DNA of 63,823 bases, the filler included, from an uncultured Methanosarcinales archaeon (GTDB lineage: Archaea > Nanobdellota > Nanobdellia > Woesearchaeales > CAYNLP01): NCBI GenBank assembly GCA_964398115.1. It is 4 parts of 4 records of this genome, joined end to end, with 100 filler letters (N's around TTAATTAATTAA, not from the genome) between each part and the next. Parts side by side here need not be neighbours in the genome. Positions count along the whole stretch, not along the records: positions 11,645 to 43,603 come from CAYNLP010000009.1; 3 more parts are not named here. One strand, written 5' to 3'. Position 1 is the stretch's first letter. The number at the start of each line of letters is the position of its first letter. A program made the translations under genes and the position numbers. This document shows, in pieces, positions 8,277-30,945 of the stretch. Below the pieces are notes generated by a model that saw only the letters and a program-made list of their open reading frames with translations, was not told where the DNA came from and searched no databases.

Positions 8277-8774
8277 ATGAGAAAAATACTATTACTCGGA
8301 CTCATAACATTATTCTTAATCTTAGCAGCTTGTGGACAACAAACAACAGATAACCAACCAGACCAGATGCAAAACGAACAAAATCAGCAAACAAATCCAC
8401 AAGACAACCAACCTACACAAGATCAACCAGAAACTAATGAACAAAACGAACAAGGACCAAACTCTCAAACTAACACCCAAGACGATCAACAAAATCAAAA
8501 TGTAAAAGAAGTTACTATGACAGCCAAGCAATTCACTTTCGAACCCAGCACAGTAAAGGTCCAGAAGGGACAAACGTTAAGATTGGAAGTTACGAGTACC
8601 GACGTAGCGCACGGCATAGCCATACCTCAATTTGGAATTGATAAAAGACTTCCAGTAGGGGAAACCGTAACTATAGAATTCACCCCTGATAAGACTGGAA
8701 CTTTCGATTTCATTTGCAGTGTCTACTGTGGATCAGGACATTCCAGCATGACAGGGAAGCTGATTGTAGAATGA
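8277..8774 (+). CDS. Lipoprotein with CuA-type cupredoxin domain
   Basis: Lipobox LAAC, Q/N-rich linker, DVAHG and CSVYCGSGHSSM ligand set. Confidence 0.88.
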   Translation: MRKILLLGLITLFLILAACGQQTTDNQPDQMQNEQNQQTNPQDNQPTQDQPETNEQNEQGPNSQTNTQDDQQNQNVKEVTMTAKQFTFEPSTVKVQKGQTLRLEVTSTDVAHGIAIPQFGIDKRLPVGETVTIEFTPDKTGTFDFICSVYCGSGHSSMTGKLIVE

Positions 8775-9247
8775 ATAACGTAAAAATTTTGAAAGTCTTA
8801 CGAAAAAGAAATTATACGCTCTTAGCACTATTTTCCTCTATAACAGTATTACTGATCTATCCTGCTATCCAGGTCTATACAACAGGTGGACTTCAGAATT
8901 ATAACGTTTGGTTTGAAGCAATACCTATTTTCAACCTTACAGTATTCATCCTTTTCGGCATATTATTCGGTCCACTATTAGCACTACAAATTTACAATAG
9001 GAAAAATGCTACGTGTAGCTTGGAAAAGAGACGTATAGGAGCTTCAAGCGGAGGCGTCGGAGCTTTAATAGCATTCTTCGTCCCTGCTTGTCCAGCCTGT
9101 TTGTCTATTGCAACGTTCATCCTCCCCACAGCCTCGGCTCTTAGCTTCACTCAATTCATATCAAAGTATGGAGTTTACCTTCTTATAGTAAGCGTAGGTC
9201 TAATGATACTGGGAATTTACTTACAAGACGGATTCAAACAAGCATAA
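8771..9247 (+). CDS. Membrane protein with intramembrane CPAC motif
   Basis: ATG at 8771 overlaps upstream stop; about four TMs; ACPAC. Confidence 0.7.
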   Translation: MNNVKILKVLRKRNYTLLALFSSITVLLIYPAIQVYTTGGLQNYNVWFEAIPIFNLTVFILFGILFGPLLALQIYNRKNATCSLEKRRIGASSGGVGALIAFFVPACPACLSIATFILPTASALSFTQFISKYGVYLLIVSVGLMILGIYLQDGFKQA

Positions 9248-9302
9248 ACTATATAAGACAATGTGTTATTCAGACTAAATAGGAATTTGGGGTGATAGTT
9301 AG

Positions 9303-10217
9303 ATGCCACGAGAAACTAGATCAAAATTAGAAAACATGACTAAGGATGAAATAGAGGATTACGCCGATAGGAAATACGGCATAAGCCTTAGTACGAGTGA
9401 CACTAAAGATGATATGATTAACCAATTCTTTGAAGAATTGGCTAACATGGATACAGGAGAAGATTACGGCAAGCAAATTGAGAATTTACAGAGCAACATG
9501 ACTTTCATCGCCGTAGTCATAGGAATCCTAGTGATTCTGTCTCTTGGATTGAATTGGAAAGTTAGCAGTCAACTTTCCTCTATCCAATCCGGAGAAGTAC
9601 CAACTGACACCGGAGCCGCACCAGGAAACAACAACGGAGGAAACGATAATCCTTCACCAAATCAGGATCAAGGAGCTCAAAGAGCAGACGTTCCAATTCA
9701 AGATAATGATCCGAAGCTAGGGGATTCAAACGCTCCAGTAACAATCGTTGAATTCGCTGACTTTGAATGTCCATTCTGCAAGCGATACTTTGACAACGCC
9801 TATCCACAAATTAAAGAGAACTACGTCGACACAGGGAAGGTTAGGTACGTTTACAAGGACTTCCCACTGACAAGAATCCACCCAATGGCAAAGAAAGCCG
9901 CCATCGCTGCACAATGTGTTTACCAAATCGATGGTAATGACGCGTTCTGGGAATACCACGACATGATCTTCAACAATCAAAATCAATTGTCTGATAGTAG
10001 TTTGAAGCAGTGGGCATCAGATGTTGGATTGAACACGAACGAGTTCAACAGTTGCTTTGACAATAGAGACACAAAAAGTGAGGTTGAAGAAGACCTAAGT
10101 CAAGGTCAAAGCGCTGGTGCAAGCGGTACGCCAACCTTCTTCATCAATGGTAAGAAGATTGTTGGTGCACAACCGTACAGCAAGTTCAAACAAGCCATTG
10201 AGTCTGAGTTGAACTAA
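9303..10217 (+). CDS. Membrane-anchored DsbA-family oxidoreductase
   Basis: EFADFECPFC, YKDFPL..IHP.A..AA, GTPTFFING; TM near aa 68-85. Confidence 0.93.
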   Translation: MPRETRSKLENMTKDEIEDYADRKYGISLSTSDTKDDMINQFFEELANMDTGEDYGKQIENLQSNMTFIAVVIGILVILSLGLNWKVSSQLSSIQSGEVPTDTGAAPGNNNGGNDNPSPNQDQGAQRADVPIQDNDPKLGDSNAPVTIVEFADFECPFCKRYFDNAYPQIKENYVDTGKVRYVYKDFPLTRIHPMAKKAAIAAQCVYQIDGNDAFWEYHDMIFNNQNQLSDSSLKQWASDVGLNTNEFNSCFDNRDTKSEVEEDLSQGQSAGASGTPTFFINGKKIVGAQPYSKFKQAIESELN

Positions 10218-11544: not shown

Positions 11545-11644
11545 NNNNNNNNNNNNNNNNNNNNNNNNNNNNNNNNNNNNNNNNNNNNTTAATTAATTAA
11601 NNNNNNNNNNNNNNNNNNNNNNNNNNNNNNNNNNNNNNNNNNNN
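11545..11644. other. Artificial contig linker
   Basis: N run with TTAATTAATTAA. Confidence 0.99.
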
Positions 11645-16608: not shown

Positions 16609-16836
16609 TCACAATAAGTTTTCATAAGAAGATTCGACTGCTTCTTTACAAACTCTGACCTCATCACCGTCGCGTTCAACATAACCTTCCTCTTCATATA
16701 AACTTAGAAACCTATCTAGTTGATCCTCGCTAGGTCTGGGCAAGAAATCTACTTCTCTAGTAAGTTCAGAAACAGTTCTAGGATTATCTTCAATTAAAAG
16801 TTCCAATACTTTTCTACGTAATTTTTCATTTCTCAT
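16609..16836 (-). CDS. Small winged-helix-like protein
   Basis: LRRKVLELL...P.TVSEL...L..Y.EEGYVER; coupled to RPA gene. Confidence 0.55.
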   Translation of the reverse strand: MRNEKLRRKVLELLIEDNPRTVSELTREVDFLPRPSEDQLDRFLSLYEEEGYVERDGDEVRVCKEAVESSYENLL

Positions 16837-18092
16837 AATTCATCTATGCTCGGAATATCTTCGTCACCTATTTCTTCTTCACCGACGTCTTCATCCATCA
16901 TACCTTCTTCCATTGCTTCATCACTAACCATCGCTTTCTTTTCTTTTTCAACGTCTTCATCACTCTCTTCATCGTCTGTTTCTTCCTCATCTTTAGACTC
17001 TCCTTTTTCTTCATCACTTTCTCCTTTGTCTTCTTCGCTTTCTTCAGGTTCTGGTTGTACTTCCGGTTCGGGAGTTTCTTCAACTTCCACGTCTTCATCT
17101 GCTTGTTCTTTCAACTTATTCATTTCTTTTTCTGGATCAGGATTTCTTTCGATAAAGTTCGCGACGAGTTCTAACCTGTCGAAAGCATCGTTGTACTGTA
17201 CTCTTCCTCTAACCCTTACAATATTTCCAAGCAGATCGTTCTTTTCCTCTTCGAATTCAACTGGTGCTTCTCTGAACTCTTTAACTTCTTCATCATCTAA
17301 GCCTAAAAGCCTTTGAACACTATTCCGCCACAGAACAGCTCTAATGTTGTCGGTGCCGTCATCCAAGAAAAGGTTCATAACGTAGCTATAATCTGGATCG
17401 TTTACAGTACCGTGAGTTTCGCATTCGTAACTGTCTCCGCTTTCTCTTGCTCTGCTGCCACAACCAGGACATACTTCGAAAAATCTTGGTTCGAAAACTT
17501 GTACTATCGTGGCTAACACTTCAACGTTATCATCTTCTTTCTCCAAATCTTCTACTTTCTTCCTAGCTGGACCGATGTCATCAAGTTCGACATCAACACT
17601 GACGTCAGGAGGGTTTACTGTTAAGTCGCTTTTTTCATTCAAGTGTATTTCCGGACGGTTTTGATTCTCTCTAACATAACCGCTTTCAATCATTACCGTG
17701 TCGCCTTCACTAATGTTTTCAATCAAGTCAGCTTGGTCGTTCCACAATACAATTCTTATCGTACCTGTATTGTCAGCTAGTATAAAGTTACCAACTTTTC
17801 CACTCCTGCCGTTCTTGTCGAACTCGTTTATGTCAAAAACTTTGTAAGCTTTACCGATTACTTCGACATCTCGCATACCTGATACTATGTTGTCAATTTC
17901 TAAACGGCCAGTGCTTTGTGTCAATTTAACATCGAGTTCGTTGGCTACGATGTGCGCAGCGCCTTCCTCACTTATCAGGCCAGAAAGTTGATCAAGTTTT
18001 TCTTCAATCTTTTTATCTAAAGAATCCTCGCTGATATCGGTTTCTTCCAAAATTTTTTCTTTAATCTTACTCATAGGAATGTTAATACTCAA
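16833..18092 (-). CDS. Replication protein A (OB folds and Zn finger) with acidic tail
   Basis: GLISEEGAAHIVANEL, D.TG.IR.VLW twice, CPGC...CETH; TTG start. Confidence 0.92.
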   Translation of the reverse strand: MSINIPMSKIKEKILEETDISEDSLDKKIEEKLDQLSGLISEEGAAHIVANELDVKLTQSTGRLEIDNIVSGMRDVEVIGKAYKVFDINEFDKNGRSGKVGNFILADNTGTIRIVLWNDQADLIENISEGDTVMIESGYVRENQNRPEIHLNEKSDLTVNPPDVSVDVELDDIGPARKKVEDLEKEDDNVEVLATIVQVFEPRFFEVCPGCGSRARESGDSYECETHGTVNDPDYSYVMNLFLDDGTDNIRAVLWRNSVQRLLGLDDEEVKEFREAPVEFEEEKNDLLGNIVRVRGRVQYNDAFDRLELVANFIERNPDPEKEMNKLKEQADEDVEVEETPEPEVQPEPEESEEDKGESDEEKGESKDEEETDDEESDEDVEKEKKAMVSDEAMEEGMMDEDVGEEEIGDEDIPSIDEL

Positions 18093-18148: not shown

Positions 18149-21100
18149 TTAACTCGCCGAATTTTCCGACATTTCCGCGTTTTCTAATGGATTAGCTGGA
18201 CACTGTAACGAGCTAAATATACCTTCCAGTCTTCCTTGAATTATATTTTTCACTTGCTGCGTTTTTTGACTATATAATTGCTGCAAAACTCTTTGCCTGG
18301 TTTGTGCATCCCATAAACTCACTACTTGAGTCAGTACATCTTTAGGCATTACTTTCATCATTTCATCCATCGCTCTAGCTTTAGCGTCAGCACTTAACGA
18401 ATTTATTTCTTCATTAACTAATTGTACTATTTGATCTTCATCGAGTTGGTGAAGTTTTTCATATACTTGCTCTATCCTTTGTGAATCAACTTCAGGCATT
18501 ACTTGTTCTAACATTATTTCTTGAACTTGCACTCCATACTTGCCATCAATGACATCCCTCACTAATTTGTCTATTTGTTCTCTAGTGAGTTGCAAGTCGG
18601 TAACTAACTCTCGCATTTCCTCTTCGCCTGCTTCTGCGTTGAATTCAAGGTTGGTTTCGTGCAAATAATTTATGCGTTGATCTAAGTTGATTGATACTCT
18701 CCTACCTTTTTTCAACATTTCAGCTTTCCTTTCCACTGATAGTTCCGTCACAGTTTGTTTTGCAGCTTTCAAGATTAATTCTTGACTGGACTCGCTGAGT
18801 TCGGATACTTGTCTTGAAGTTTTCCTTACAAAGTTCTTTTTGTCTTCTAGTTTGGTCACGTTTGACAATTTATGCCTGGCTTTCCTCTTCCACTCTTCTG
18901 GTATTTCTCTATCTTGTACGAGATCTTGATACGTTTTTGACTTTTCTTCTGCTGTCCTTACGACTTGTTGTATGTTGTTTCTAAACTCTTCAGAGTTGAA
19001 TTCGTTTTCCACATCTCTTATGGCGTTGGTGACTACGTTATCACTTAATTCTTCACTTAGTCTGGTTTCTCCTACTTGCTTTGCTATTTCCGAATCGCCT
19101 ATTACTTGAATCGCTTTTGCTGGATTACCACTTTCTACGGCGTTGATGAAGTCGTCAGCGTTTTGAGTTATTTTAACGTAAGAATCTTTTATTTCACCTA
19201 GTCCGAGGAATTCTAACATTCTTTTCTCTATTGACACAAACTTTTCACAAGCTTGGATGGGTTCACCTCTTTGCCCGTTGCTGTCCATAGGGATGAGTGT
19301 CAAGCAGTAACTAGGGCTGGTCATTTGAGCTAGTTGGTTCATGAATTCGTTCCCACAAGTGTTCATAATGAAGCTTGTCTTATCTTGAATCTTTCGTGTT
19401 GGTATCTTTCTTGCGAAGTGCACGTTCCCATTTTCTCCTATGACTTTCATGTATTCACACGCTTTATCTTTTATCTCGGTCAATTTTTGTATCATGTCGA
19501 CTTCACTTTCTAGGTTTTGTTCTGCCCTTTGCACGTCTGATTGTAGATCGTTGAGGTATTGGTTGTCGACGCTAACTACTGAGTTTTCACTGCCTACATC
19601 TATGTCTCCTGCTGGGGTGTTTAGGCTGCACTGTACTTGGAATGCGGAAATGTCTGAAGTTTCTGGAACGTCTAGTTGGACTTGTAAAGCTGCTTTTTGC
19701 TGGTTGGGTAACATTTCCAGAATGCTTGGAGGAATTCCTAGTGCTAGGCTTAAGCCTTGAGTCACTACTTGTTCTTGTACTTGGCTGAACAAGTCTTGGT
19801 TGGATTTTTCGACTTGTTCCATGTTTACATTCACGTCTTCTTGTTTTGGTTTTTCATCTCTTAGTGTGAGTGCGAATTTAGAACGGATTGGTTTCTTCAC
19901 AGTGTTTCCATTTTCTTGTATTTTGTATTCTTTTCTTGACTCTGCGCATACGAGGAAGGTTCTCCTGTTCTCTGGGCATAACCCGATAGCTTGTTGGTTT
20001 TGTCCTTGTCCTGAAATCCCTCCTGCTACTTTTGTCAGTACTAATTTGTCTTTATTATTTTCTGGCTTGTATAAGTTCAAACTTTTATAGTCTCCAGATA
20101 GTTGTGAAGATTCTATTTCTATGTTGTTCCCCTCTTTCGTTATAGTTATGGAATCTAGTTTTTCGTTTGTATCGGCGGGTTGTGGATTATAATATGTGGT
20201 GTTTGTTTCCAGGTCGTACACTCTTTTGACGGGTTCTTCCATCTTTATCTTTTGACCTTCTAGTTTTATCTCGTAGTTTTTCGGATCATCTATTTCTGTC
20301 AAGTTCAATCTACAAACGCATCTGGCTCGATCGTTGGCAAGGCAGGTTTCAAATTCTTCCACTACTTTATAGAAGAAGTCGTATTGTTCGCATTGGCTAA
20401 CGTCATTGTAGAGTTTATAGGAATTATTTTCTGAATTGTATTGTCTTATTTTTTCTTTCAAGGTGGCTTGGGGGCTTTCATACGTTTCTTCCCAGGTGTT
20501 TCTCGCCCAGGTTATAACGCTTTGCATGTGTTTGGTAATGCCAGGTAGTTCCAAATCTGTTTTTACTTTGAAGTGTGGCATGACGGTATAGTTTGAACCT
20601 TTATTGAAGTATCCTTGATTAAGTTGTCCTTGTTCGCTTGTTCCTACGCCGGAGCATTGGCTTATACTTTCTTTGTCATAGCTTATTGTGTCTACAGTGC
20701 CTCCTCCGTATAGGTTTAGACAGTTATTAGCGGTAGGACTTGTTTGAGATTGTAAACTCTCGAGTTGGTTTTCGCTGTAAAAGCAGAAAGGATTCCTTCC
20801 TGTTTGTTGGTTTTGGCTTGTGTAAATTCCGAAGTGTAAGTGTTCTGCGCTGGACGCTCCGGTGTTACCCATCGTTCCGATTTGTTGTTCCTTATTTACT
20901 TTGTCTCCAACGTCTACGTTGACTGTTTCAAGGTGAGCGTATCTTGTGTGAAGGCCGTTGTCGTGTTTTATATACACGTAGTTGCCGTATCCGTTGCATT
21001 TTCTTTCACAATCTGGGTTGGGTTGGCATCCTTTTGGACCGCAGTTGTACAAGCTGCATGTTTGTTGTTTGCAAACATCTATCACTTCTCCACTTGCTAT

Positions 21101-21841
21101 GGACTTGATTGTTTCTCCACCTCGGTTTCCGAAGTCGATGCCGTCGTGGAATCCGTCTCCGTGTTGTCTTTGTCCGTAGCAGGAAGTAACGGCTGAGTCT
21201 TGTGCTGTTACTGGCAGAGCTAGGTCTTCATCTTGTATTGAAATGTTTTGTACCGTTGGACCTGCTATTCTTGGTCGTCCCACACCTTTTTGAACTTGTA
21301 CTGTTATGGGTTTTTGAGCTGTGCCTTCTATCACGTATTCTTCTCCTTTCTTTTTCACTTTAAATTCGTAGTTGTTTAAAGGTATGTTTACAGCGGGGTC
21401 GGGATATTTTGCTAGGTAGGATTTCATGTCTGTCTGTAAGAATTTGCTGAACGTGTTGAATTCTGTTTGTGGTTCGCAGAATTGTTGTTGTGTGGACCAT
21501 CTGTTGTAAACAAATTTTGAACAATTAGTTTGTTTCACGGAGAACACGTTGTCGGCGCCGTCAATTCCTTCTTGCCATTCACCTCCTTGGTCGTTGTATT
21601 CTTCAAAGCTTTGACGCATCGAATACTTCGCTGCTTGGTCAATATAGGTTCTTGCACTTTCTGCTTTTTGAATGGTTTCTAACAACGCGGTTTGTGCGTC
21701 TCCAATCTTTCTTTCCTCTCCTTGACTGTTTTTAATGTTGAGTTCTCCTTTCACTGCCATGTAGGAAAATATTAGTAGTGAGATGAGGGTGATTAGTACT
21801 ATGAGGCTGTACACGTATCCTTTCTTACTTTCAATTTTCAT
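18149..21841 (-). CDS. 1230-aa pilin-like-signal protein with an M23 peptidoglycan endopeptidase domain
   Basis: KKG|YVYSLIVLITLISLL; HDGIDF, GYGNYVYIKH, TRYAHL, IGTMGNTGAS..EHLHF. Confidence 0.9.
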   Translation of the reverse strand: MKIESKKGYVYSLIVLITLISLLIFSYMAVKGELNIKNSQGEERKIGDAQTALLETIQKAESARTYIDQAAKYSMRQSFEEYNDQGGEWQEGIDGADNVFSVKQTNCSKFVYNRWSTQQQFCEPQTEFNTFSKFLQTDMKSYLAKYPDPAVNIPLNNYEFKVKKKGEEYVIEGTAQKPITVQVQKGVGRPRIAGPTVQNISIQDEDLALPVTAQDSAVTSCYGQRQHGDGFHDGIDFGNRGGETIKSIASGEVIDVCKQQTCSLYNCGPKGCQPNPDCERKCNGYGNYVYIKHDNGLHTRYAHLETVNVDVGDKVNKEQQIGTMGNTGASSAEHLHFGIYTSQNQQTGRNPFCFYSENQLESLQSQTSPTANNCLNLYGGGTVDTISYDKESISQCSGVGTSEQGQLNQGYFNKGSNYTVMPHFKVKTDLELPGITKHMQSVITWARNTWEETYESPQATLKEKIRQYNSENNSYKLYNDVSQCEQYDFFYKVVEEFETCLANDRARCVCRLNLTEIDDPKNYEIKLEGQKIKMEEPVKRVYDLETNTTYYNPQPADTNEKLDSITITKEGNNIEIESSQLSGDYKSLNLYKPENNKDKLVLTKVAGGISGQGQNQQAIGLCPENRRTFLVCAESRKEYKIQENGNTVKKPIRSKFALTLRDEKPKQEDVNVNMEQVEKSNQDLFSQVQEQVVTQGLSLALGIPPSILEMLPNQQKAALQVQLDVPETSDISAFQVQCSLNTPAGDIDVGSENSVVSVDNQYLNDLQSDVQRAEQNLESEVDMIQKLTEIKDKACEYMKVIGENGNVHFARKIPTRKIQDKTSFIMNTCGNEFMNQLAQMTSPSYCLTLIPMDSNGQRGEPIQACEKFVSIEKRMLEFLGLGEIKDSYVKITQNADDFINAVESGNPAKAIQVIGDSEIAKQVGETRLSEELSDNVVTNAIRDVENEFNSEEFRNNIQQVVRTAEEKSKTYQDLVQDREIPEEWKRKARHKLSNVTKLEDKKNFVRKTSRQVSELSESSQELILKAAKQTVTELSVERKAEMLKKGRRVSINLDQRINYLHETNLEFNAEAGEEEMRELVTDLQLTREQIDKLVRDVIDGKYGVQVQEIMLEQVMPEVDSQRIEQVYEKLHQLDEDQIVQLVNEEINSLSADAKARAMDEMMKVMPKDVLTQVVSLWDAQTRQRVLQQLYSQKTQQVKNIIQGRLEGIFSSLQCPANPLENAEMSENSAS

Positions 21842-22379
21842 CTTGTTTCCATCCTTTAATGTCCATTTGGATAGGCTTTTTCTCGTTTGGGACGGGGAGG
21901 TATATCCGTCCGGTAAATCGGTGGTCTTTTCCGGTTATCAAATCTCTCATAGTTTTTTGTATTGTACCCATTAGTGTAGGGGAAGGTTGTTCTAAATCCC
22001 CGATGGTTAGGCTTTCCCCTGCCGGATATTTTATTCTTATCCCATATGGTAGTTTTGACCTTTCGTATTCAGGATGTATTTCTCGCATTTCCATTTTTAT
22101 TTCATGTTTTAAAGTTTCTCTAGCTTCTGAATCTTCGTAGCTATAAACTACCAGGTCTGCTATCGTGTCTACTTCGGAATTTCCTGACAATTGTACATTG
22201 GTTGGTCTTTTCAAAAGGTTGTTTAAGAAATGTTCTGAGGTGGTGGCTGTGAATCTTGCTTTGGTTATTTCATTTTTTTGTGCGCTTTCCCAGTTTATGA
22301 GTGTGAGGAATCCTGCGAATACTAGGAGGTATAGGACGAACATTATCACGGTTCCTATCACGCTTTGTCCCTTGTTCAT
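21831..22379 (-). CDS. Pilin-like (class III signal) protein
   Basis: MNKG|QSVIGTVIMFVLYLLV. Confidence 0.75.
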   Translation of the reverse strand: MNKGQSVIGTVIMFVLYLLVFAGFLTLINWESAQKNEITKARFTATTSEHFLNNLLKRPTNVQLSGNSEVDTIADLVVYSYEDSEARETLKHEIKMEMREIHPEYERSKLPYGIRIKYPAGESLTIGDLEQPSPTLMGTIQKTMRDLITGKDHRFTGRIYLPVPNEKKPIQMDIKGWKQDEN

Positions 22380-22867
22380 TCTGGCACCGCCACTTTCACA
22401 TCTAGTATTCCTTTGCTAGTGTTTCCGTCTTTCATTATATTCACGGGAAGCCTTTTATGATAGAGTTCTGGACTTCCTATGCCTACGAGTCCTGCTTGTT
22501 GTAATGGTCTCCAAGTTTCGTATTGTTCTTTGTTATAGTAGATTGTTTGTTCATCGCCGTTTTTCACGTTTGTAAGTGTGACTTTTGCCGCCCCTACCAA
22601 GTTTGACTCGTAGTTTATCGCACCGTCTAGGGTTGAAGTGTTGAACTTCTCCCAAGATATAGTTCCTGGGCGTGTTCGTCCCATGTCGTCAACATAGCTT
22701 ATAGTGCTTGGAGAGTATGCAATCCTTGCAAATATCATTTCTCCTCTCACTCTTGCATCTTCGAATTCGTTTCCTGAAAAGTTTTGTATTATTATCAGTA
22801 TGGATATGAATCCTAGCAGGGTTAAGGTAACGATTTTAAACCAAGTTTTGAGTGTAAAATCTACCAT
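22376..22867 (-). CDS. Single-TM protein of the pilin-like cluster
   Basis: N-terminal hydrophobic helix without a basic KKG leader; translationally coupled. Confidence 0.65.
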   Translation of the reverse strand: MVDFTLKTWFKIVTLTLLGFISILIIIQNFSGNEFEDARVRGEMIFARIAYSPSTISYVDDMGRTRPGTISWEKFNTSTLDGAINYESNLVGAAKVTLTNVKNGDEQTIYYNKEQYETWRPLQQAGLVGIGSPELYHKRLPVNIMKDGNTSKGILDVKVAVPE

Positions 22868-23284
22868 TTAGGATCCCTCTTTGAAAAGCCAAGAAGTTTG
22901 GTTTTTCACAATAGTTATGTTATCAGATATCATTCCTGACTTGATATAGTCTAGGTTTGGGTCTGAAGCGTAGGGTTGTTCTATCCCAGCTCTTTGCTGT
23001 ACTGGCTCGTCGCTCTCATCGTAGAAAGTGATTCTATTCTTTGTCGCGTTGAACTCTATCGCATATTTACTTCTTATCTCGTAAGGAAAGTTTACGTTTC
23101 CTGGAGCCGCTAATACTCCGTCTGCCAGTAAAGAAATGTCTTTAGCGTAGTATTTTCTATGAAGGTTTGAGTCACCCACCACGTTGTTTACCATCATGTA
23201 TCCGAAGATTACTATAGTAGCGGCGAGGACTATTTCTACAGCAACTTCAAGAGTTTGATTTTCACCTTTTCTGTAGAGAGACAT
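22868..23284 (-). CDS. Pilin-like (class III signal) protein
   Basis: RKG|ENQTLEVAVEIVLAATIVI. Confidence 0.75.
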   Translation of the reverse strand: MSLYRKGENQTLEVAVEIVLAATIVIFGYMMVNNVVGDSNLHRKYYAKDISLLADGVLAAPGNVNFPYEIRSKYAIEFNATKNRITFYDESDEPVQQRAGIEQPYASDPNLDYIKSGMISDNITIVKNQTSWLFKEGS

Positions 23285-23325: not shown

Positions 23326-24402
23326 TTATTGGCAGAAGTATTTGGATGTCCCTGCCGATGTGAGTTCTGCTTTTACGTTGCATCCGAGTTGGCAAGGATC
23401 CATTGCGCAATGGGATCCTTCTACTTTCGTACAGTCTTTCGCAGTTCCTGTAATAGTGGTGCCCCCGCAATAGTCGTTGCATTCATCTATTTGGGAACAG
23501 TCTATCTGTCTGTATTCAGAAGTTGTCCCTGTAACCTTGCAATATCCGGTTCTGTATGCTTTTCCGTCGCAAGCACATAATTCGGTTATTTTTCCGTCTT
23601 CACATTTTTCAATTTGGATTGCTTCGCACCGGTTCGTTGTGGAATCTTTTCGGCAGTAGTTGGTGATGACACCTTTGATTACTTCATCCGTGTAGCTATT
23701 TTGACATTCTTCATCACTGTTTTGAGAACACTTTTGTAGATGTTTATATCTGTATTTTGTGTGTGGTCCTGAATCTGTTATTAGCACGTGTTGGCGTCCG
23801 TTTTCTGTAATTTTTTCTATGTAGAATTCGTTAAGTTTTCCTATATTGTCTCCGTAAATTACAAAATGTGTTTTTTTGGATTTCATATTATCTGGCAATT
23901 CTTCATAAGCTTGTATATTTACGTTTTTGCTTTCCGCTTTTTTGTCTGTTAAAGGGGGGATTTTGTGTGCTCCCATGAATTCAAAGTTTTGATTGAAATC
24001 CCAGCAGTTGACTATTTCTCCATCGCCGTCGCCTATGTGGAAGTTGTATAGACACATGCAGGTTTGTGTATTGCACCTGTCGGGTTTTCTTACTGTCTTT
24101 ACTTCATCGTCTATATTTACTCTTACTCTTTCTCTCGCTCCGTTGTCAAATCCGGCTAGGGAGAATTTTTCTGGTATGAACAAGCTGTCTGTGGTGTAAC
24201 TCATTCCTTCTTTGCTTAGCAAGTTGTTTATTTTGTCCTTCATCTGTATTGCTTGTTCTTTTGCTGCTTCAGCTTCTGTCGTGTCTCCTGTCACTATGTC
24301 CCACGCTTTGAGTGTTAATGGAAATGCGAATAGGAGAACTACGCCTAGAAACACTATTTTTATAATGTTTTCGAGAGAGAGTAAATCTCCTTTTCTACTC
24401 AT
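23326..24402 (-). CDS. Pilin-like protein with Cys-rich C-terminal region
   Basis: MSRKG|DLLSLENIIKIVFLGVV; many C-terminal Cys. Confidence 0.75.
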   Translation of the reverse strand: MSRKGDLLSLENIIKIVFLGVVLLFAFPLTLKAWDIVTGDTTEAEAAKEQAIQMKDKINNLLSKEGMSYTTDSLFIPEKFSLAGFDNGARERVRVNIDDEVKTVRKPDRCNTQTCMCLYNFHIGDGDGEIVNCWDFNQNFEFMGAHKIPPLTDKKAESKNVNIQAYEELPDNMKSKKTHFVIYGDNIGKLNEFYIEKITENGRQHVLITDSGPHTKYRYKHLQKCSQNSDEECQNSYTDEVIKGVITNYCRKDSTTNRCEAIQIEKCEDGKITELCACDGKAYRTGYCKVTGTTSEYRQIDCSQIDECNDYCGGTTITGTAKDCTKVEGSHCAMDPCQLGCNVKAELTSAGTSKYFCQ

Positions 24403-24412
24403 ATTCTTTATA

Positions 24413-25081
24413 CTATGCCGTATTTATACAGATTGATCCTTCATCATATTCGAAATTGGAGAATGAATCGTCTTGACCGGAAAGCCATCCTTTGTTAACG
24501 TGGATATCTTCAACATCTCCATCATTTTTTGAGTGGAATATTTCTATGATACCGTCTCTGCCTCCACACATATCTAGAGGTATTACTTTGCTATGTATGA
24601 TTTCGGAATTTGTTCTGTAGAATTGTATTCGTGCTATGCTATTGTCCCCTTGCTTCGTAAATTCTATTACTAGATTGGTATCTTCAGTCATTAGATTTAG
24701 TGTTTTTTGTGTTGCTTCTTCGCAGAGTCCTTGTTCTCCTTCATTGTTCTTGCAGGAAATCAGTAGTTGTATCATTTCAGAAAAGGATTGTGTGTATTGA
24801 GCTTCTTTTTTCGCCTTCTCAGTTTGAGGTATACAGCAATTAAGTTTTTCTTCTCTGCATTCTCCTCCTGTAACTTCAGTAGTTACGTATCCTTCATCAC
24901 AGGTTTCTTTACAAACTCCATTTCCGGCTGGTCCGCCGCATGCTTTACCTGCGTTACTAAGCTCTTTACCGAAGAGTTCAATAGATTGTATGCAACATTC
25001 AAGCATGACAACCATTAGTACTCCAACGATTACTACGGTTCCTAATGTTCCGAGTAAGGTTAGACCTCTTTTGTCCATCAT
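24413..25081 (-). CDS. Pilin-like protein with defensin-like Cys motif
   Basis: DKRG|LTLLGTLGTVVIV; C-x8-C-x3-C-x13-C-x6-CC. Confidence 0.75.
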   Translation of the reverse strand: MMDKRGLTLLGTLGTVVIVGVLMVVMLECCIQSIELFGKELSNAGKACGGPAGNGVCKETCDEGYVTTEVTGGECREEKLNCCIPQTEKAKKEAQYTQSFSEMIQLLISCKNNEGEQGLCEEATQKTLNLMTEDTNLVIEFTKQGDNSIARIQFYRTNSEIIHSKVIPLDMCGGRDGIIEIFHSKNDGDVEDIHVNKGWLSGQDDSFSNFEYDEGSICINTA

Positions 25082-25117: not shown

Positions 25118-25849
25118 CTAACTTTCAAATTCGCAATTTTGTCCTTGGACATGCTCTACATAGCAGATGTCGGCGTTTTCTCCACATCCTAAGCCATTAT
25201 AGGCTCTAAGTGCTCTGTTCCAACCTTCGTATTGTTTGTAATGCTGTCTGTAGTCGGTGTAGTCGTAGTTGTCTATTTGTTTGTAATTGTCCGCGTCACA
25301 GTGACTGTTGATTTTGCTGTGATATTCGCTTTCACTCCAACTAGTTGCTTGTTCGTGTTTATCTTTTAATATTGCCAGGCCGCATTTGATGTTTTGTGTT
25401 TTATTCTTTAAGTCTGCGTCTGGGCAGATTGATTCTGCCGTGTCAGGATTTATTTGCATTATCCCGTATGACAATCCGCTACTTACCACGTTTCCTTCTG
25501 AATTGCAGTGCCTCATATTGCTTTCTTGCTGTGCAAGGTCTCGGACTAAAGGCCATGGAAGTTGTCTCGTAGGGGGGAGATCGCTGTTGAATTCTTCAGT
25601 TAGGGTTTGTAATTTTTGTTGGTTTTCGTCTTGAGTGTCGTCTCTATATGCTTGGGGGCACGGCCATGTTTCTCCTGGTTGGTTTTCTTTGTTGGTAACT
25701 CCTAGCAAAGTGTCTTTAAAACTCGCAACTAGTCCTTTTCCGGTATCTCTTGTAGGGATAACAACTGATTTTAGTACTATCACTGTTATAGCTGCTACTA
25801 TGAAGAGTGTGAGTATCGTACGCCAGGTTATTTGTCCTTTTTTCATCAT
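25118..25849 (-). CDS. Pilin-like-signal protein with soluble lytic transglycosylase (SLT/GH23-like) domain
   Basis: Likely start MMKKG|QITW at 25849; SLT motifs QQESN (catalytic Glu), YGIMQI, NIKCG..IL, ALRAYNG. Confidence 0.88.
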   Translation of the reverse strand: MMKKGQITWRTILTLFIVAAITVIVLKSVVIPTRDTGKGLVASFKDTLLGVTNKENQPGETWPCPQAYRDDTQDENQQKLQTLTEEFNSDLPPTRQLPWPLVRDLAQQESNMRHCNSEGNVVSSGLSYGIMQINPDTAESICPDADLKNKTQNIKCGLAILKDKHEQATSWSESEYHSKINSHCDADNYKQIDNYDYTDYRQHYKQYEGWNRALRAYNGLGCGENADICYVEHVQGQNCEFES

Positions 25850-25998: not shown

Positions 25999-26916
25999 CT
26001 ATGTTTTTATAGGTATTGGTTCTCTTTCACAATCTAGGTTTTGCAAGGTTTCATTGTTGTATTCTGCGAGGATTGTTTGTGATACGTGTTCAGGAGTTGT
26101 TTCAGAGCTTATTTTGAACAGTCCTGCTTGCACTCCAACCCATGTTATCCCTGCAGCTGTTATTCCTGTTGCTCCAACTGCCCATCCAGCGGTTACAATG
26201 CCTAAGCTGTATCCTATAAATGCTGTTTTTCCTCCTGCTAAGACTCCTGCTCCTATCCCAATAGCGTTTCCTAACTTTCCGGTTTTTGTATTACCGCTTA
26301 TTTGATCTAAGAATTGTTGTATTTCATCTCTTCCTTTCGAATAGACGAACAGGGTGGCGTAGTCTTTGTCCGTGTTTAAACCCCAATTTTTAACATTTGA
26401 TGCTTCATCTAACTTTTGTATTTGCTTGTTTAAACTTTCCAGGGTTGAACTCCCTACGGTTGAGTATCCGCTTAAGTATTCCAGATAGGTCATTTCTTTC
26501 CGGGGTATTTCGTTTTCTGCCATGTATTTGTAAAGGCCGGTTATTTCTTTTTCTCGTCCTTCAAAGCTTATTATGGAGCACGTGTGGCAGTAAGTGGCTT
26601 CTTCTTGGAATAGGTTTTCGTCTCCTTCTGAAAAGCTGTACCAGCATTTCCTCATTTCTTCTGCTAGTTTTTCTTTCACGTTGTTGGATGTTTGTATGGT
26701 TACTTGCCTAGTTGGGCATTGTATTTCACTTGCAAATGTTCTTCCACTCCACATCTTTTGTGCGGCGTGTTTTTCTGTTTCTCCTCTGCACTTTCTAACT
26801 TCTAAACTTTCTTGCGTGTTGAACATTACGGGCTTGAGGATTAAGATTAGTATTATCAAGGCGGCAGTGGTTATAACGGCGGATGTTAACAATTTTTGTC
26901 CTTTATTCGAGTACAT
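25999..26916 (-). CDS. Pilin-like protein with glycine-zipper hydrophobic hairpin
   Basis: NKG|QKLL; LAEEMRKCW...C..C; GIGAGVLAGG...GWAVGATGITAAG. Confidence 0.75.
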   Translation of the reverse strand: MYSNKGQKLLTSAVITTAALIILILILKPVMFNTQESLEVRKCRGETEKHAAQKMWSGRTFASEIQCPTRQVTIQTSNNVKEKLAEEMRKCWYSFSEGDENLFQEEATYCHTCSIISFEGREKEITGLYKYMAENEIPRKEMTYLEYLSGYSTVGSSTLESLNKQIQKLDEASNVKNWGLNTDKDYATLFVYSKGRDEIQQFLDQISGNTKTGKLGNAIGIGAGVLAGGKTAFIGYSLGIVTAGWAVGATGITAAGITWVGVQAGLFKISSETTPEHVSQTILAEYNNETLQNLDCEREPIPIKT

Positions 26917-27568
26917 GGTCGCACCTTAACTGGTTGAACTTGTCTTGTGTCATCAACATTACTGAACTATCGGCGTTGTTGAAGATAACGTCGGACCATG
27001 GTATTGTCATTCTGTCTTCGCTGAATGCTTGGTACATGACGTAATATGTTCTAGTCGTGTCTAGGTTGTTTTCAATTAAAGCGGTGTAGTTTTCGACATT
27101 AGGATAGAGGAAACTGGTGTATTTTTCTTCTCTATTCCGTATGGTTTCTTCTGATAGGAATTGTTTGAAGTTTGGGATATTTCCTGTTCTGACGTTGTTA
27201 TCAAATTTTATTTCGGCGCATTGGAAGCATACTGTGTCTCCTACTCCTACTAGTTCTTTATCGAAAGGATCTAGTTCTCCTTGTTGGAATATTTCCCAGC
27301 ATTGTCTCATGTTTTCGGCTATTCTCTTCTTGGCTTTGTCTTGATCTATTTCTTCTTGTGTGATGGTCATTTCTGCTTTGTCGCATGTGAATTCTAATAT
27401 GTTTTCGCTTGCTACTGCTTTTTGTGCTGATAGTTTGCACATGTCAAATTTAAGTTCATCTTTAGAGCTGGCTATTAATTTGTCTGTAGTTAATGTTATT
27501 GCTATCACGGCTCCTATCACGAGTGCTATCGCTATTAGTTTTTCTATAGCTATGCCTTTTTTGTTCAT
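26903..27568 (-). CDS. Pilin-like protein, paralog of 25999-26916
   Basis: MNKKG|IAIEKLIAIALV; IAENMRQCW.F..G...F.....CFQC..I.F. Confidence 0.78.
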   Translation of the reverse strand: MNKKGIAIEKLIAIALVIGAVIAITLTTDKLIASSKDELKFDMCKLSAQKAVASENILEFTCDKAEMTITQEEIDQDKAKKRIAENMRQCWEIFQQGELDPFDKELVGVGDTVCFQCAEIKFDNNVRTGNIPNFKQFLSEETIRNREEKYTSFLYPNVENYTALIENNLDTTRTYYVMYQAFSEDRMTIPWSDVIFNNADSSVMLMTQDKFNQLRCDHVLE

Positions 27569-27660
27569 AAGAATGACTCCTTGAATTGGACTATTAAGAG
27601 TATTAGAGCTATTAGGCCGAAGCTGAATAGTATGAGCATTGCTAGTTTCTTTAGGGACAT
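27565..27660 (-). CDS. 31-aa single-TM peptide (not in ORF track)
   Basis: MSLKKLAMLILFSFGLIALILLIVQFKESFL; ATGA overlap with the next gene. Confidence 0.5.
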   Translation of the reverse strand: MSLKKLAMLILFSFGLIALILLIVQFKESFL

Positions 27661-27711
27661 CAGTTCGTTATTAGGCAGAAGATTGTATTAAAACATTTCC
27701 CTCAAATCTTT

Positions 27712-29094
27712 TTAGTCTGAGTTTTGCAATTCTTCTTCCAGTCTTTGTTTTGCTTGTTCGAAGAATCCTTGTTTTGCTTCTTCTGTTCCAACGTAAGCTT
27801 GGAATTCTGGTTCGTTCTCATTCCCTGCTCGGTCTCTAGCGTAGATACAAACATTGGCGTATACAACGCCGTCAACGTTTATCTCGTCATCACTCGATCT
27901 GGTATAGCCAGTTGTAGGACATTTGCCTTGTTTAGCAGTTCTTGAGATGAAGTCGAGTATTGATTGTTCTAAATTTTCGTCACTTGTTATGTCAGATTCC
28001 GTTTGCTCATCTCTAACACTGTAGTAGTATTCGTCGCACCCGCTTCCTCTATCTTCACAAGTTATTGTAGTGCCGTCTAATCCTAGACTGTGTGGTGGTA
28101 CTGAGTCAACCCTCACATTTTTAGTGGGGAAGTATAGTGTTTCTCCTCCTCTCATGTTTACTTCGATGCATAATGGCTGGTTTACGTATCCAGTGCCTAT
28201 TCTCTGCCTGACCGTACTTCCATTAATGAAGAATCCTACTTGGTCGTCTAGAAATACTTTGCTCGTTTCTATTTCACTTCCTGTAAATAATTGTTCGTTG
28301 CAGTTGGAGAATTGTCCTTGCATCATGAATCTGTAGTCTGCGCTTTCACAATCTCCAACGTTGCAATTGAGTCGGAAACTTTCTTCTTGAGTCCATTCTC
28401 CTTGTAGTCCTACTACTGAAACAGGCCGGGTTAGGTCTATTGGATAAGTGGCTTTTGCAACTCTTTGCCCGTCGTTGAGAACTTCTACATGAACTTGAAT
28501 ATTTTGTTTTAAGTTGCTTGACGTGAATTGGATGTTTGACAACCCAGATCCTGATTTGTCTCCTCTTGATTGATCGTCTGCAATGTTAGAACAAGGATCG
28601 CTTATCTCGGCTTTAGGATTGTCCTCGTTTTGTCTTACATAGAGTATTTGATCCGTTGACTCATCGGTTATGTAAATCTGGCAAGTTTGTCCTTCTTCAA
28701 GGATTTTACTGTCTATGTAGGTGTGGAAAGTGTATTCTCTCCCCGTAAATAGAGGTATTCTTTCTTCTGCGCTGTATAGTTTCCGTCTGTCTTCTACTTG
28801 TAGTTGTATGGCGTTGCTGCCAGGGACTACCTTGTTGTCTGAGAGGTGGCTTTTAATCTCGTCGCTTGTGCAGCATACTCCGGTGTCGCATGCTCCGGCT
28901 GCTTGGAAGAGTTGTTGTTCGTTTTCTCCGCAGCTTTGTTTACAGACTCCTTCTCTCCCGCTGCATGTGTTAATACTTTCTGCAAATCCTGAAAGGGTTT
29001 CTTGTCCTATGCTTAGTAGGATCCATACGAGTGCTAGTATGAGTATGACACTTCCTACTACTTTTAATGCACTTAGCTCTCCTTTCGTGTTCAT
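27712..29094 (-). CDS. Pilin-like protein with defensin-like motif and Ig-like domains
   Basis: TKG|ELSALKVVGSVILIL; CSGREGVCKQSC...CDTGVCC; VDSVPP...C.D.GSGC...ARDRAGN. Confidence 0.78.
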   Translation of the reverse strand: MNTKGELSALKVVGSVILILALVWILLSIGQETLSGFAESINTCSGREGVCKQSCGENEQQLFQAAGACDTGVCCTSDEIKSHLSDNKVVPGSNAIQLQVEDRRKLYSAEERIPLFTGREYTFHTYIDSKILEEGQTCQIYITDESTDQILYVRQNEDNPKAEISDPCSNIADDQSRGDKSGSGLSNIQFTSSNLKQNIQVHVEVLNDGQRVAKATYPIDLTRPVSVVGLQGEWTQEESFRLNCNVGDCESADYRFMMQGQFSNCNEQLFTGSEIETSKVFLDDQVGFFINGSTVRQRIGTGYVNQPLCIEVNMRGGETLYFPTKNVRVDSVPPHSLGLDGTTITCEDRGSGCDEYYYSVRDEQTESDITSDENLEQSILDFISRTAKQGKCPTTGYTRSSDDEINVDGVVYANVCIYARDRAGNENEPEFQAYVGTEEAKQGFFEQAKQRLEEELQNSD

Positions 29095-29095
29095 G

Positions 29096-29353
29096 TTATT
29101 CTCCTATGTCTTGAGGTGCGCAGCAAATTTCTCCTTCACCGCATCCTGTCGACTGATAGAAAGTGGTTCCTTCTGGACAGCTGTCGGCTGCACAGGTGAA
29201 TCCTTCTCCTCTTTCTTCACATGCGTTTGTAGATTCTCTGAAGTCTCCAATCTTGCCGGTGACGAGCATTATCAGAACTACTAGAATGATTAGGGCTAAT
29301 GCTGCCATCACTATTGTTTGCAAGCTCATCTCTATGCCTTTCTTGCTTTTCAT
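29096..29353 (-). CDS. Small archaeal pilin with defensin-like head
   Basis: KKG|IEMSLQTIVMAALALIILVVL; six-Cys motif ending CC. Confidence 0.85.
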   Translation of the reverse strand: MKSKKGIEMSLQTIVMAALALIILVVLIMLVTGKIGDFRESTNACEERGEGFTCAADSCPEGTTFYQSTGCGEGEICCAPQDIGE

Positions 29354-29628
29354 GATGATTCTTCTTGTTCAATGGGTATGCAACATTTTTGGTCGTCTTC
29401 AGGGCATGCTCGGTAGCTGTCTTCCGCGTATCCGCTGGGGCATTGTTCGTCTGTGTCTAAGTTCATGCATTGCCCGCCAGGCACTTTTTGGCATTCGTTG
29501 GTCTGTCCGAGAATGTTGCCTTGTCTCAAGACTAGTGTGGTTAGAATTACGAGTATTAATAGTGCGATTGCTGCTATTATTATGACGTTCATGCTTAGGC
29601 CTTGGCCTTTTTTCATTAAACTTTTCAC
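29350..29628 (-). CDS. Small archaeal pilin with defensin-like head
   Basis: KKG|QGLSMNVIIIAAIALLILVIL; six-Cys motif ending CC. Confidence 0.85.
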   Translation of the reverse strand: MKSLMKKGQGLSMNVIIIAAIALLILVILTTLVLRQGNILGQTNECQKVPGGQCMNLDTDEQCPSGYAEDSYRACPEDDQKCCIPIEQEESS

Positions 29629-29659
29629 CTCTAGAGTAATATCTTTTCGGTCTTTTCTA

Positions 29660-29673
29660 TTATTTAAATGTTG
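29660..29673 (-). promoter_or_regulatory. Putative TATA promoter of pilin 29350-29628
   Basis: CAACATTTAAATAA, identical to 29940-29953. Confidence 0.6.
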
Positions 29674-29916
29674 CTATGACTGTTCTCCAACCGGAATGCA
29701 GCATCTCTGGTCTTCTTCAGGACAAGTCGCTTTTGTGTGTTCAACCATGCCATCTCCGCAAGGATTTTCTTGACAGGTCCCGCCTGAAACTGTAGAACAA
29801 GATCTTGTGTCACTTGGAACGTTTGATATGAAAACCGCAGATAGTACTACTAGAACCAAGAGTGCGAGAGCTGCTATGACGATGGTTTTGAGGCTTAATC
29901 CTTGACCTTTTCTCAT
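29674..29916 (-). CDS. Small archaeal pilin with defensin-like head
   Basis: MRKG|QGLSLKTIVIAALALLVLVVL; C-x7-C-x4-C-x11-C-x6-CC. Confidence 0.85.
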   Translation of the reverse strand: MRKGQGLSLKTIVIAALALLVLVVLSAVFISNVPSDTRSCSTVSGGTCQENPCGDGMVEHTKATCPEEDQRCCIPVGEQS

Positions 29917-29939
29917 CTTGGTTTATTCTCTTAATCTTC

Positions 29940-29953
29940 TTATTTAAATGTTG
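29940..29953 (-). promoter_or_regulatory. Putative TATA promoter of pilin 29674-29916
   Basis: CAACATTTAAATAA ending about 24 nt before the ATG. Confidence 0.6.
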
Positions 29954-30463
29954 TTATGTCTTGCATATTTCCATGGTGACAGTTGCTTCGCTTTGCATTG
30001 GGTAGAGTGGGAGTACTTGCCTACCTGGGCTTTCTTTTTCTTTTTCACGATCACAGCCTTGGTTGGTAATGTTCCAGAGTTCTTCTCCGTCTTGATTTAT
30101 GTGGTAGTAGTAGCTCACTCCCCATTTGTCTAGTGTTTTCCGTAGTATTTGGTGGGCGGTTTGGTTTACGTAGTAACAGCTTTGATGTCCGTTGCAGATT
30201 ATGTCTCCGCCGCTTGCTTCTTCTAAGTTTCCGTTTCGGATGCAGTCTTTGACTAACGCGCTGTATTGTTGTCCGCAAGCTGGTATGTGGGTGTTGGTAA
30301 TTACTTGTACGAAGCTTTTGCCCATGTTGGCCTCGCCGAACGTTTCGCTCGAACTTGTTTGCTCTTCTGAGTTGAAAGTGGTGGTTAAGGTGAATGCTAA
30401 GACTAGTCCTGCTATGACTAGTATGAGCATTAATCCTACGATTTCGATTTGTCCTTTTTTCAT
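29954..30463 (-). CDS. Pilin-like (class III signal) protein
   Basis: MKKG|QIEIVGLMLILVIAGL. Confidence 0.8.
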   Translation of the reverse strand: MKKGQIEIVGLMLILVIAGLVLAFTLTTTFNSEEQTSSSETFGEANMGKSFVQVITNTHIPACGQQYSALVKDCIRNGNLEEASGGDIICNGHQSCYYVNQTAHQILRKTLDKWGVSYYYHINQDGEELWNITNQGCDREKEKESPGRQVLPLYPMQSEATVTMEICKT

Positions 30464-30945
30464 GAATGCTTCACCATGGTGAGGTATCCGAACGTGTTTG
30501 TTTTATTTATTGAGTTGTAGATGTAGACTGGCATTCGTATTGGGATTTCACTGCTAGTGTTGGCTGTGTGGTTGTAAATCACCCATTGTTTTTCTGTTGG
30601 GTAGACTTGGTTTACTTTGATCGTGGCAGATCCGTATTCTTCTCGGAAGAAATTGTATATGTCGCTGTTGGGGTTGGCGTTTCGTATACTTTGATTGGCT
30701 ATGTCTAGGCGGTGTTGGTCTAAGCAGTAGGTGTTGGTTTGTGGTGAATAGCCGCAGCTTATCTCTGGTGTGGTAGCGGCTTTTTGTGCTGTGTCGACCG
30801 CGCTTAGGCTTTCGAAAGTTCTGCCTTTTTCTCGTATTTGTTCTCCTGTGAACATTCCATATCCTACTAAGCCGGCTATTAGGATTATTATCACGATTAT
30901 TATGACCATGATGAGTTCTCCGGCTTTAATCATCGCTTTTTTCAT
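30460..30945 (-). CDS. Pilin-like (class III signal) protein
   Basis: MKKA|MIKAGELIMVIIIVIIIL. Confidence 0.78.
   Translation of the reverse strand: MKKAMIKAGELIMVIIIVIIILIAGLVGYGMFTGEQIREKGRTFESLSAVDTAQKAATTPEISCGYSPQTNTYCLDQHRLDIANQSIRNANPNSDIYNFFREEYGSATIKVNQVYPTEKQWVIYNHTANTSSEIPIRMPVYIYNSINKTNTFGYLTMVKHS

Follow-up and report, generated by a model that had tools for sequence, protein, structure and literature searches.

A gene of 1230 amino acids (P0001; positions 18149–21841, minus strand) lies in the window analysed here, a 63,823-nucleotide stretch of DNA from an uncultured DPANN archaeon (assembly GCA_964398115.1) whose order is Woesearchaeota by one database name. The encoded protein carries an M23 peptidase domain in its interior, behind a conserved N-terminal module that we call the carrier. 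Because the window joins separate contig parts (contigs C2, C9 and C16, with N spacers at 4435–4534, 11545–11644 and 43604–43703), genes on the two sides of a spacer are not neighbours. The gene belongs to contig C9, whose entire 31,959 bases occupy positions 11645–43603. The genome amounts to 1.0 Mb in 67 contigs and is 91% complete. RadA, Replication protein A (RPA) and NFACT genes mark the archaeal affiliation of the window, and a homologue in a relative is labelled at NCBI 'M23 family metallopeptidase [Candidatus Woesearchaeota archaeon]'.

From its N-terminus the protein comprises a leader, a hydrophobic helix, the carrier N-module, the M23 head, a post-head domain, a stalk and a helical tail, all encoded on the minus strand. 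The leader, MKIESKKG (residues 1–8; 21818–21841), resembles a class III signal with putative cleavage after G8 and runs into YVYSLIVLITLISLLIFSYMAV, thus a short charged leader followed by hydrophobic residues, of which about 20 are expected in class III signals. The hydrophobic N-terminal helix (residues 9–33; 21743–21817) is modelled by AlphaFold2 as a helix over residues 6–33 or 7–32 with a predicted local distance difference test score (pLDDT) of 92–97. The carrier N-module (residues 34–205; 21227–21742) is modelled with a long helix (48–84), a loop holding Cys107 and Cys122, a second helix (128–143) and a beta hairpin (158–175). The Peptidase_M23 head has a Pfam span of residues 231–344 (20810–21151) within a folded domain of about 217–349, and includes a six-cysteine insert (residues 257–282; 20996–21073), which forms a beta hairpin in the model and occupies the loop connecting the 'GEVIDV' strand with GYGN. 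Behind it lie a post-head domain, postA, recognised by a hidden Markov model (HMM) and containing four conserved cysteines (residues 412–520; 20282–20608), a stalk common to relatives of 1263–1445 amino acids with other heads (residues 521–900; 19142–20281), and a C-terminal tail rich in Glu, Lys and Gln (residues 901–1230; 18152–19141) that is found in close relatives only (2/98). Residues 400–1230 gave no sequence match in the PDB (best E 0.61) and none in the ESM Atlas. An antisense open reading frame (ORF) of 118 amino acids inside the M23 region (20840–21196, plus strand) matches no family and has nothing else in its favour; it probably arose by chance.

The M23 head

The head matches Pfam Peptidase_M23 (PF01551) with an E-value of 4.5e-25 and a score of 88.1 bits (cut-off 28.7), a result confirmed on the genome, where it is the one M23 domain among the genome-wide profile matches. 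Its motifs are FHDGID at residues 231–236 (H232, D236), GYGNYV at 284–289, YAHL at 301–304 (H303) and HLHF at 334–337 (H334, H336), so that all five residues of the HxxxD, H, HxH set are kept. A first reading of the DNA from sequence only had called an intact M23 domain between positions 20780 and 21220. That span encloses the Pfam span in the 1230-amino acid frame, the HDGID, HLH, GYGNYV, YAHL and KKG motifs on which it was based are all present, and the call is borne out by the profile, the five residues and a lysostaphin-like fold. The same reading had described an extra loop of five cysteines within the domain. The insert is there, with six cysteines rather than five, the sixth being supplied by ERKC. 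Aligned to solved M23 enzymes, the 26 residues of the insert replace about five residues in lysostaphin.

An AlphaFold2 model of residues 1–400, built on a 99-row alignment, has a mean pLDDT of 82.6, with the M23 domain, insert included, mostly over 90. Foldseek aligned this model with lysostaphin (4qpb; E 2e-10, TMt 0.75) and gave a TMt of 0.81 to 9gy1 and 0.84 to 4bh5; further structural matches of the head were StM23, LytM, DipM, EnvC and SpoIIQ. The agreement of sequence and fold with M23 enzymes is far beyond chance, and by its residues and the model the head is an intact zinc M23 endopeptidase that looks active. The zinc would be bound by H232, D236 and H336, and catalysis would involve H303 and H334, an assignment that we take to carry over from LytM and lysostaphin.

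Among 26 M23 heads of the family, 15 have the full H-D-H-H-H set, the 1230-amino acid protein included; four, the closest orthologues, read H-D-H-H-D, one has Tyr for the first His and one a gap at the last position. The four orthologues with HLD (L011–L014, drawn from the same family and from two others) retain the remaining four residues and a Cys-rich insert. Cys-rich inserts of four or six cysteines occur at the same loop in 9/26 heads. Such disulfide-rich M23 variants could be of interest as salt-tolerant lytic enzymes.

The carrier module and its distribution

A six-frame search of 60 relatives with the full-length protein returned one full-length orthologue (30% identity over residues 5–1225), several proteins matching the N-terminus together with the M23 domain, and many matching residues 3–190 only. 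A profile of the N-module, the first ~190 residues, matches 333/401 genomes of the order, mostly once per genome, and a 99-row version matches 247/301 genomes of a phylum-level sample that contained only members of the same order and the same class; 12 genomes in the first count and 2 in the second are unpublished, and no sequence was taken from these. The 1230-amino acid protein has the features of this carrier family, namely a match to the N-module profile (E 6.8e-60 to profile A2, which by construction contains this sequence), the last position in a row of genes with pilin-type signals, and an RPA gene downstream.

Two features of the module are close to invariant. C107 and C122 are kept in 90% or more of the alignment rows, and a [KR][GAS] pair directly precedes the hydrophobic stretch in 95/99 family members, two of the four exceptions being ORFs cut at the 5' end. 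The module corresponds to no family in Pfam or NCBIfam. Its profile found nothing credible among PDB sequences (best E 0.1, chance matches to coronavirus protease), and its look-alikes in the ESM Atlas are all hypothetical archaeal proteins from Nanobdellota and Woesearchaeota. A word-indexed search of 5.8 billion proteins returned nothing but M23-domain matches for the full protein and 2 proteins for the N-module profile, and is too insensitive to show uniqueness.

Exchange of catalytic heads

The sequence-only reading had proposed that the catalytic cassette may be exchangeable, with other hydrolases at the same position in relatives, and this is what domain censuses, pairs from one genus and the abutting flanks of headless forms bear out. 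The first census covers 18 ORFs found with the full-length query, and is hence biased to M23, with 2/20 loci lacking a single-sequence match left out. M23 heads occur in eight of these proteins (one also with SLT and YkuD), SLT in two, and Amidase_2, Peptidase_C39_2, Glucosaminidase and 3D (weak) in one each; four have none. The second follows the ranking of the N-module profile for 80 ORFs with a head threshold of E<=0.001, leaving out the first-set loci, seven frames of <250 amino acids, four unpublished genomes, one frame with an internal TAG, and G052. Here SLT is the most frequent head (25, 1 below the Pfam cut-off), followed by M23 (17, 2 below; one with C39_2), VanY/Peptidase_M15 (6, 2 below), 3D (3, 1 below), Glucosaminidase (2, 1 below), Amidase_2 (1) and YkuD (1), with none in 25. 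A murein-active domain is therefore present in 55/80 second-set proteins, and lies above Pfam's curated cut-offs in 48/80. The members without a head by Pfam are L017, L049, L064, L076 and L095, which have one family code (f24), and 20 others; many are 440–950 amino acids long and group together as clades when the carrier tree is built, and enzyme domains that escape recognition may be present in the longer ones.

Close relatives make the exchange visible at the level of single genes. L046, with a 3D head, and L053, with an M23 head, have the same genus code and align over residues 3–161 (45% identity, E 2e-37) and again over 353–702 (35%, E 3e-55), with no similarity between the two stretches. 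For L043 (Amidase_2) and L070 (VanY), also of one genus code, the alignment is confined to the carrier. A HMMER search with residues 400–1230 against 1.84 billion representatives found 21 proteins, the long ones of which have stalk and carrier in common and bear SLT alone, M23 alone, M23 with SLT, Amidase_2 or 3D as heads. The postA HMM matches 55/98 relatives; it sits behind the head in headed proteins and starts at residues 159–203, abutting the carrier, in 14 proteins without a recognisable head. The headless 259-amino acid protein at L117:3507–4283 is one example of contiguous carrier and postA. The head is thus an insert between two conserved parts, since the flanks match without it and abut in headless forms. 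An assembly chimera is unlikely as the cause of the flank homology because the pattern recurs in many genomes. In the carrier tree different heads appear as sisters (Amidase_2/SLT, M23/SLT and Amidase_2/VanY) with approximate likelihood-ratio (SH-aLRT) support of 92–99. Together these observations strongly support the catalytic head as an exchangeable cassette that has been replaced repeatedly in relatives, even within genera. Outside the order, at 15/15 loci sampled elsewhere in the class, the carrier protein has 233–295 amino acids and no Pfam domain. Among the genomes examined, heads are additions seen in this order.

The gene row and its conservation

All genes between 18149 and 32518 are on the minus strand, and nearly all encode a K/R-G/A pair and a hydrophobic helix at the N-terminus. 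A strict scan for class-III-like motifs found 66 ORFs among 1928 of at least 80 amino acids genome-wide, 12 of them on contig C9, all on one strand. The M23 gene closes the row and overlaps the upstream ORF by 11 nucleotides, counted from its ATG to the stop of that ORF. That ORF is one of three small, translationally coupled genes of 182, 163 and 138 amino acids (21831–23284, minus strand), of which the 163- and 138-amino acid genes are conserved beside the carrier gene. The 163-amino acid neighbour (22376–22867, minus) begins directly at its hydrophobic part (MVDFTLKTW...), whereas homologues in relatives have an NKKG/A leader; in this genome the leader seems to have been lost, or the start to be non-canonical.

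Further upstream on the minus strand are two Cys-rich proteins of 358 and 222 amino acids with RKG and KRG leaders (23326–25081) and, six genes upstream of the M23 gene, a pilin-signal protein (MMKKGQ...) with an SLT lytic-transglycosylase domain (25118–25849; Pfam E 1.8e-10). The SLT protein has the E-S, GIMQI and AYN motifs, and a homologue was found only in a same-genus relative. Ten more genes with K/R-G/A and hydrophobic N-termini follow (25999–32518, minus). Among them are two small genes of 85 and 92 amino acids (29096–29353 and 29350–29628, minus), candidate major subunits whose homologues lie upstream in relatives; the 92-amino acid protein found nothing credible among PDB sequences (best E 0.48). 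The pilin-signal protein at 25999–26916 (minus) has a glycine-rich hydrophobic C-terminal third (GKLGNAIGIGAGVLAGG...) and only a weak, sub-threshold lipase match. Upstream of the row, 32499–42368 (minus) encodes three very large Cys-rich proteins with signal peptides (809, 1036 and 947 amino acids) and a pilin-signal protein of 484 amino acids. The 809-amino acid protein has a Big_13 domain, the only Pfam family found in this group, together with a C-terminal membrane helix and a lysine-rich tail.

Directly downstream of the M23 gene, an RPA gene with a long acidic tail (16833–18092, minus) marks the end of the row. At 20 loci of the order, the homologue of the 163-amino acid protein lies upstream in 16, that of the 138-amino acid protein in 14, and RPA downstream in 12. 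At 15 loci of other orders the row opens with small subunit-like genes before reaching the carrier gene, with the 138-amino acid homologue in 10/15, the 163-amino acid homologue in 12/15, and RPA downstream in 15/15, within 400 nucleotides in 13. As the gene order is conserved both within the order and in other orders, the row is old and vertically kept across the class.

Elsewhere in the window, contig C2 carries a cluster of HMA, DsbD-like, cupredoxin and DsbA-like thioredoxin genes (4581–10217, plus strand). This Dsb-type cluster is a likely source of extracellular disulfides for the many Cys-rich surface proteins, and its DsbA-like and DsbD-like genes fit disulfide bonding of Cys-rich exported proteins outside the cell. 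The predicted proteome is acidic, with a median isoelectric point (pI) of 5.09 and 45% of proteins below pI 5 (593 ORFs of at least 200 amino acids), which a saline habitat would fit. A high-salt setting, as suggested from sequence, is possible and consistent with this acidity. Sequencing runs containing the locus are sediment metagenomes only, with no RNA run among them. The genome encodes one prepilin peptidase of the Peptidase_A24 family, at 51360–51695 of contig C3, and four ATPases of the T2SSE type, all on contigs other than C9.

Discussion

Our results describe an archaeal protein in which an M23 domain of intact sequence and fold is set between conserved flanks and closes a conserved row of genes with pilin-type signals. 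On balance we favour, with some reservation, a model in which it is an exported surface protein whose exchangeable M23 head cuts the wall of foreign bacteria. In this model the peptides of bacterial peptidoglycan would be cleaved by the head, and its glycan strands by the SLT protein encoded six genes upstream. Mur_ligase_M, FtsW/RodA and the transpeptidase of penicillin-binding proteins (PBP) had no match in the 91%-complete genome, and because Mur ligase, FtsW/RodA and PBP do not appear, the target is probably foreign murein. The most likely substrate is the wall of bacteria that the archaeon attaches to, preys on or scavenges, and exchange of the head perhaps matches different wall chemistries.

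Several observations weigh against this model or the readings built upon it. M23 is the sole Pfam family in the 1230 amino acids at E<=0.01, a search in which no known peptidoglycan-binding domain was found. At 91% completeness the missing murein genes count as not found rather than absent. Catalysis is not kept universally, because 5/26 M23 heads of relatives have degenerated and HLD takes the place of HLH, at the last zinc ligand, in the closest orthologues. The carrier tree is poorly resolved, with 12/96 branches well supported; head changes on it number 41 against a shuffled mean of 55.8, a figure that is only indicative given the weak tree and is not a count of swap events. On the side of the surface machine, no pilin family of Pfam or NCBIfam was matched at E<=1 among the 9–10 row proteins scanned. 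The carrier modelled alone (pLDDT 81; predicted template modelling score 0.68) matched no known structure clearly; its best E in Foldseek was 2.2, and with VIA-align its best Z was 5.9 (phage sheath) and that to GspK 4.3, all within noise. No T2SSE ATPase is encoded on contig C9. In the five near-complete relatives compared, the T2SSE match closest to the carrier gene scores below the cut-off and lies about 36 kb off, and those above the cut-off are at least 58 kb distant. The failure to match a fold is to be read as no match and not as evidence of a different fold; postA may complete the carrier fold, in which case the searched model would have been half a domain. The sole faint pilin-type match in the row is that of the ORF at 29954–30463, which scored 17 bits for GspG where the cut-off is 88.85.

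The protein had been called pilin-like and filament-associated from sequence. The first description is based on the class-III-type N-terminus and the row of like-headed genes, with no pilin profile matched and no pilin fold matched clearly, and the second is an inference, with no assembly ATPase on the contig or within 36 kb in the five relatives. A K/R-G/A/S pair before the hydrophobic stretch is required by prepilin peptidase and is not needed for a plain anchor, and pilin genes distant from their ATPase are common in archaea. A type-IV-like system is favoured by the class-III-type leader, the like-headed row, the small genes that resemble subunits, and the prepilin peptidase and ATPases that the genome encodes. 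The protein would probably be displayed on a type-IV-like filament or surface complex, or be fixed next to one, and filament display is plausible. A wider proposal, which we put forward tentatively, is that a filament or surface apparatus found across the class has had its terminal subunit made into a tool holder in Woesearchaeota, with murein-cutting heads (peptidase, transglycosylase, amidase, carboxypeptidase, glucosaminidase) swapped within genera to fit the wall chemistry of particular bacterial partners. Less probable than the favoured model is that enzyme and target are as proposed and there is no filament, the N-termini, cleaved or not, being only membrane anchors and the row a surface complex or cell-contact patch. 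The lack of a pilin profile or fold match, the distant ATPases, a carrier built mainly of helices with a single hairpin, which sets it apart from the typical pilin head, and a 1200-amino acid cargo that is hard to place except at a filament tip would all suit such a patch. However, membrane anchoring would leave the near-universal [KR][GAS] pair (95/99) and the small 85–92-amino acid subunit-like genes of the same conserved row to be accounted for, as well as a prepilin peptidase and type-IV-type ATPases in a genome of a domain where such distances are common.

The nature of the substrate admits a reading in which the heads digest murein debris of dead sediment bacteria for amino sugars and amino acids in an archaeon with few biosynthetic pathways. 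We regard this as rather unlikely. The origin of the locus in sediment metagenomes and the lack of an identified binding domain or toxin-like partner are in its favour, as is the published suggestion, in the portion of that paper available, that dead-cell peptidoglycan is a nutrient of Pacearchaeota (PMC11537232). An anchored enzyme, however, reaches only what touches the cell, and head turnover within genera looks more like partner matching than bulk digestion. Loss of catalytic residues in 5/26 heads of relatives, and EnvC and SpoIIQ among the structural matches, could instead point to a role in binding or regulation without catalysis, as in EnvC, NlpD or SpoIIQ, with the head holding the bacterial wall or activating another hydrolase, but all five residues are kept in this protein and in 14 other family members, which makes such a role improbable here. 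Placement in a surface-structure operon recalls bacterial lytic enzymes associated with machines, such as VirB1 or FlgJ, and the head might by analogy be an autolysin remodelling the archaeon's own wall for passage of a surface machine. We reject this as very improbable, since no murein synthesis genes (Mur ligase, FtsW/RodA, PBP) were found in the 91%-complete genome and headless forms at 15/15 loci of other orders indicate that the row works without a hydrolase. Phage proteins (Gp16 and a cyanophage internal protein) are among the sequence and fold matches of the M23 domain, as would befit a lysin of a virus or mobile element that sits here by chance. That origin we hold to be the least probable of all and likewise reject, since the carrier gene is widespread and mostly single-copy (333/401 genomes of the order) and keeps its place beside RPA across the class.

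Most DPANN archaea are uncultured and their partners unknown, and murein hydrolase genes have led published work to speculate on bacterial hosts. The locus makes this speculation a defined object, with a near-universal carrier gene in a fixed chromosomal place and a head that can be read from any genome, so that head type set against the wall chemotype of co-occurring bacteria could predict partners. If the tool-holder proposal is true, archaea of this kind would have a molecular machine for life on bacteria or for predation on them, a lifestyle that crosses domains. To our knowledge there is no cultured DPANN example of archaea that live on or prey on bacteria.

Comparison with known systems

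The head has the HxxxD, H and HxH residues and the fold in common with lysostaphin, LytM and StM23. It differs from them in its sequence (25–30% identity), in the six-Cys insert in place of a short loop, in having no SH3b or other targeting domain, and in being embedded in a 1230-amino acid archaeal protein. Another comparison is with Woldo (M23) and Danwoldo (Glucosaminidase) of Halogranum salarium, which kill bacteria (Strock et al. 2025; PMC12352652). Like the carrier proteins, they are archaeal M23 or Glucosaminidase enzymes aimed at bacterial walls whose catalytic domains have been replaced in evolution. According to the sections of that paper available, they are soluble, Tat- or Sec-secreted and defined by a peptidoglycan-binding PG_binding_1 domain; M23 homologues are reported in four Nanoarchaeia genomes, and pilins and class III signals are not mentioned in those sections. 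The 1230-amino acid protein, unlike Woldo and Danwoldo, has no PG_binding_1, carries a pilin-type leader and lies in a conserved surface operon. With no recognised peptidoglycan-binding domain (Pfam, E<=0.01), it falls outside the modular peptidoglycan hydrolase class as Strock et al. define it.

Large exported DPANN proteins with a transglycosylase domain (fam00969) have been proposed to bind or degrade the walls of bacterial hosts (Castelle et al. 2021; PMC8204110), and 'vampiristic' Woesearchaeota have been proposed from GH23 genes (Vigneron et al. 2022; PMC9723730). These proteins come from the same lineages, and relatives with the carrier and stalk described here do carry SLT. As far as the accessible parts of the two papers extend, they name the transglycosylase domain only and mention neither pili, pilin nor M23, while the 1230-amino acid protein has M23 and not SLT. 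Nor do those parts contain the carrier module, the pilin-signal row or head exchange, and our likening of fam00969 to the carrier proteins is by description only. Neither peptidoglycan nor hydrolases come up in the text available to us of a survey of type IV filaments in archaea from 2026 (PMC13705601). A search of full-text literature found no paper on the carrier module, its position in the row or the exchange of its heads, and supplementary tables may list members. Murein hydrolases of DPANN archaea and modular pilins of bacteria are thus already published, and the combination of a carrier with head swapping was not found in the literature.

A close architectural parallel is provided by the modular type IV pilins of bacteria, such as Streptococcus sanguinis PilB with a vWA and PilC with a lectin module (Raynaud et al. 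2021; PMC8179133). That survey is bacterial, and the words 'archaea', 'peptidoglycan' and 'hydrolase' have no occurrence in the portion of its text available. Unlike in the modular pilins, the head of the present protein is inserted inside the protein rather than appended, and a pilin profile or fold match is missing, that to GspK included. The likeness with modular pilins and GspK, as far as the consulted parts of the sources describe them, lies in a class-III-type N-terminus, a small carrier with a grafted module and many architectures per carrier. It extends to the gene, which is likewise the last and largest after small minor-subunit-like genes, and for which a location at the tip would be expected. 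If the row does build a filament, this would be, as far as our literature search shows, the first described archaeal pilin-type carrier bearing enzymes.

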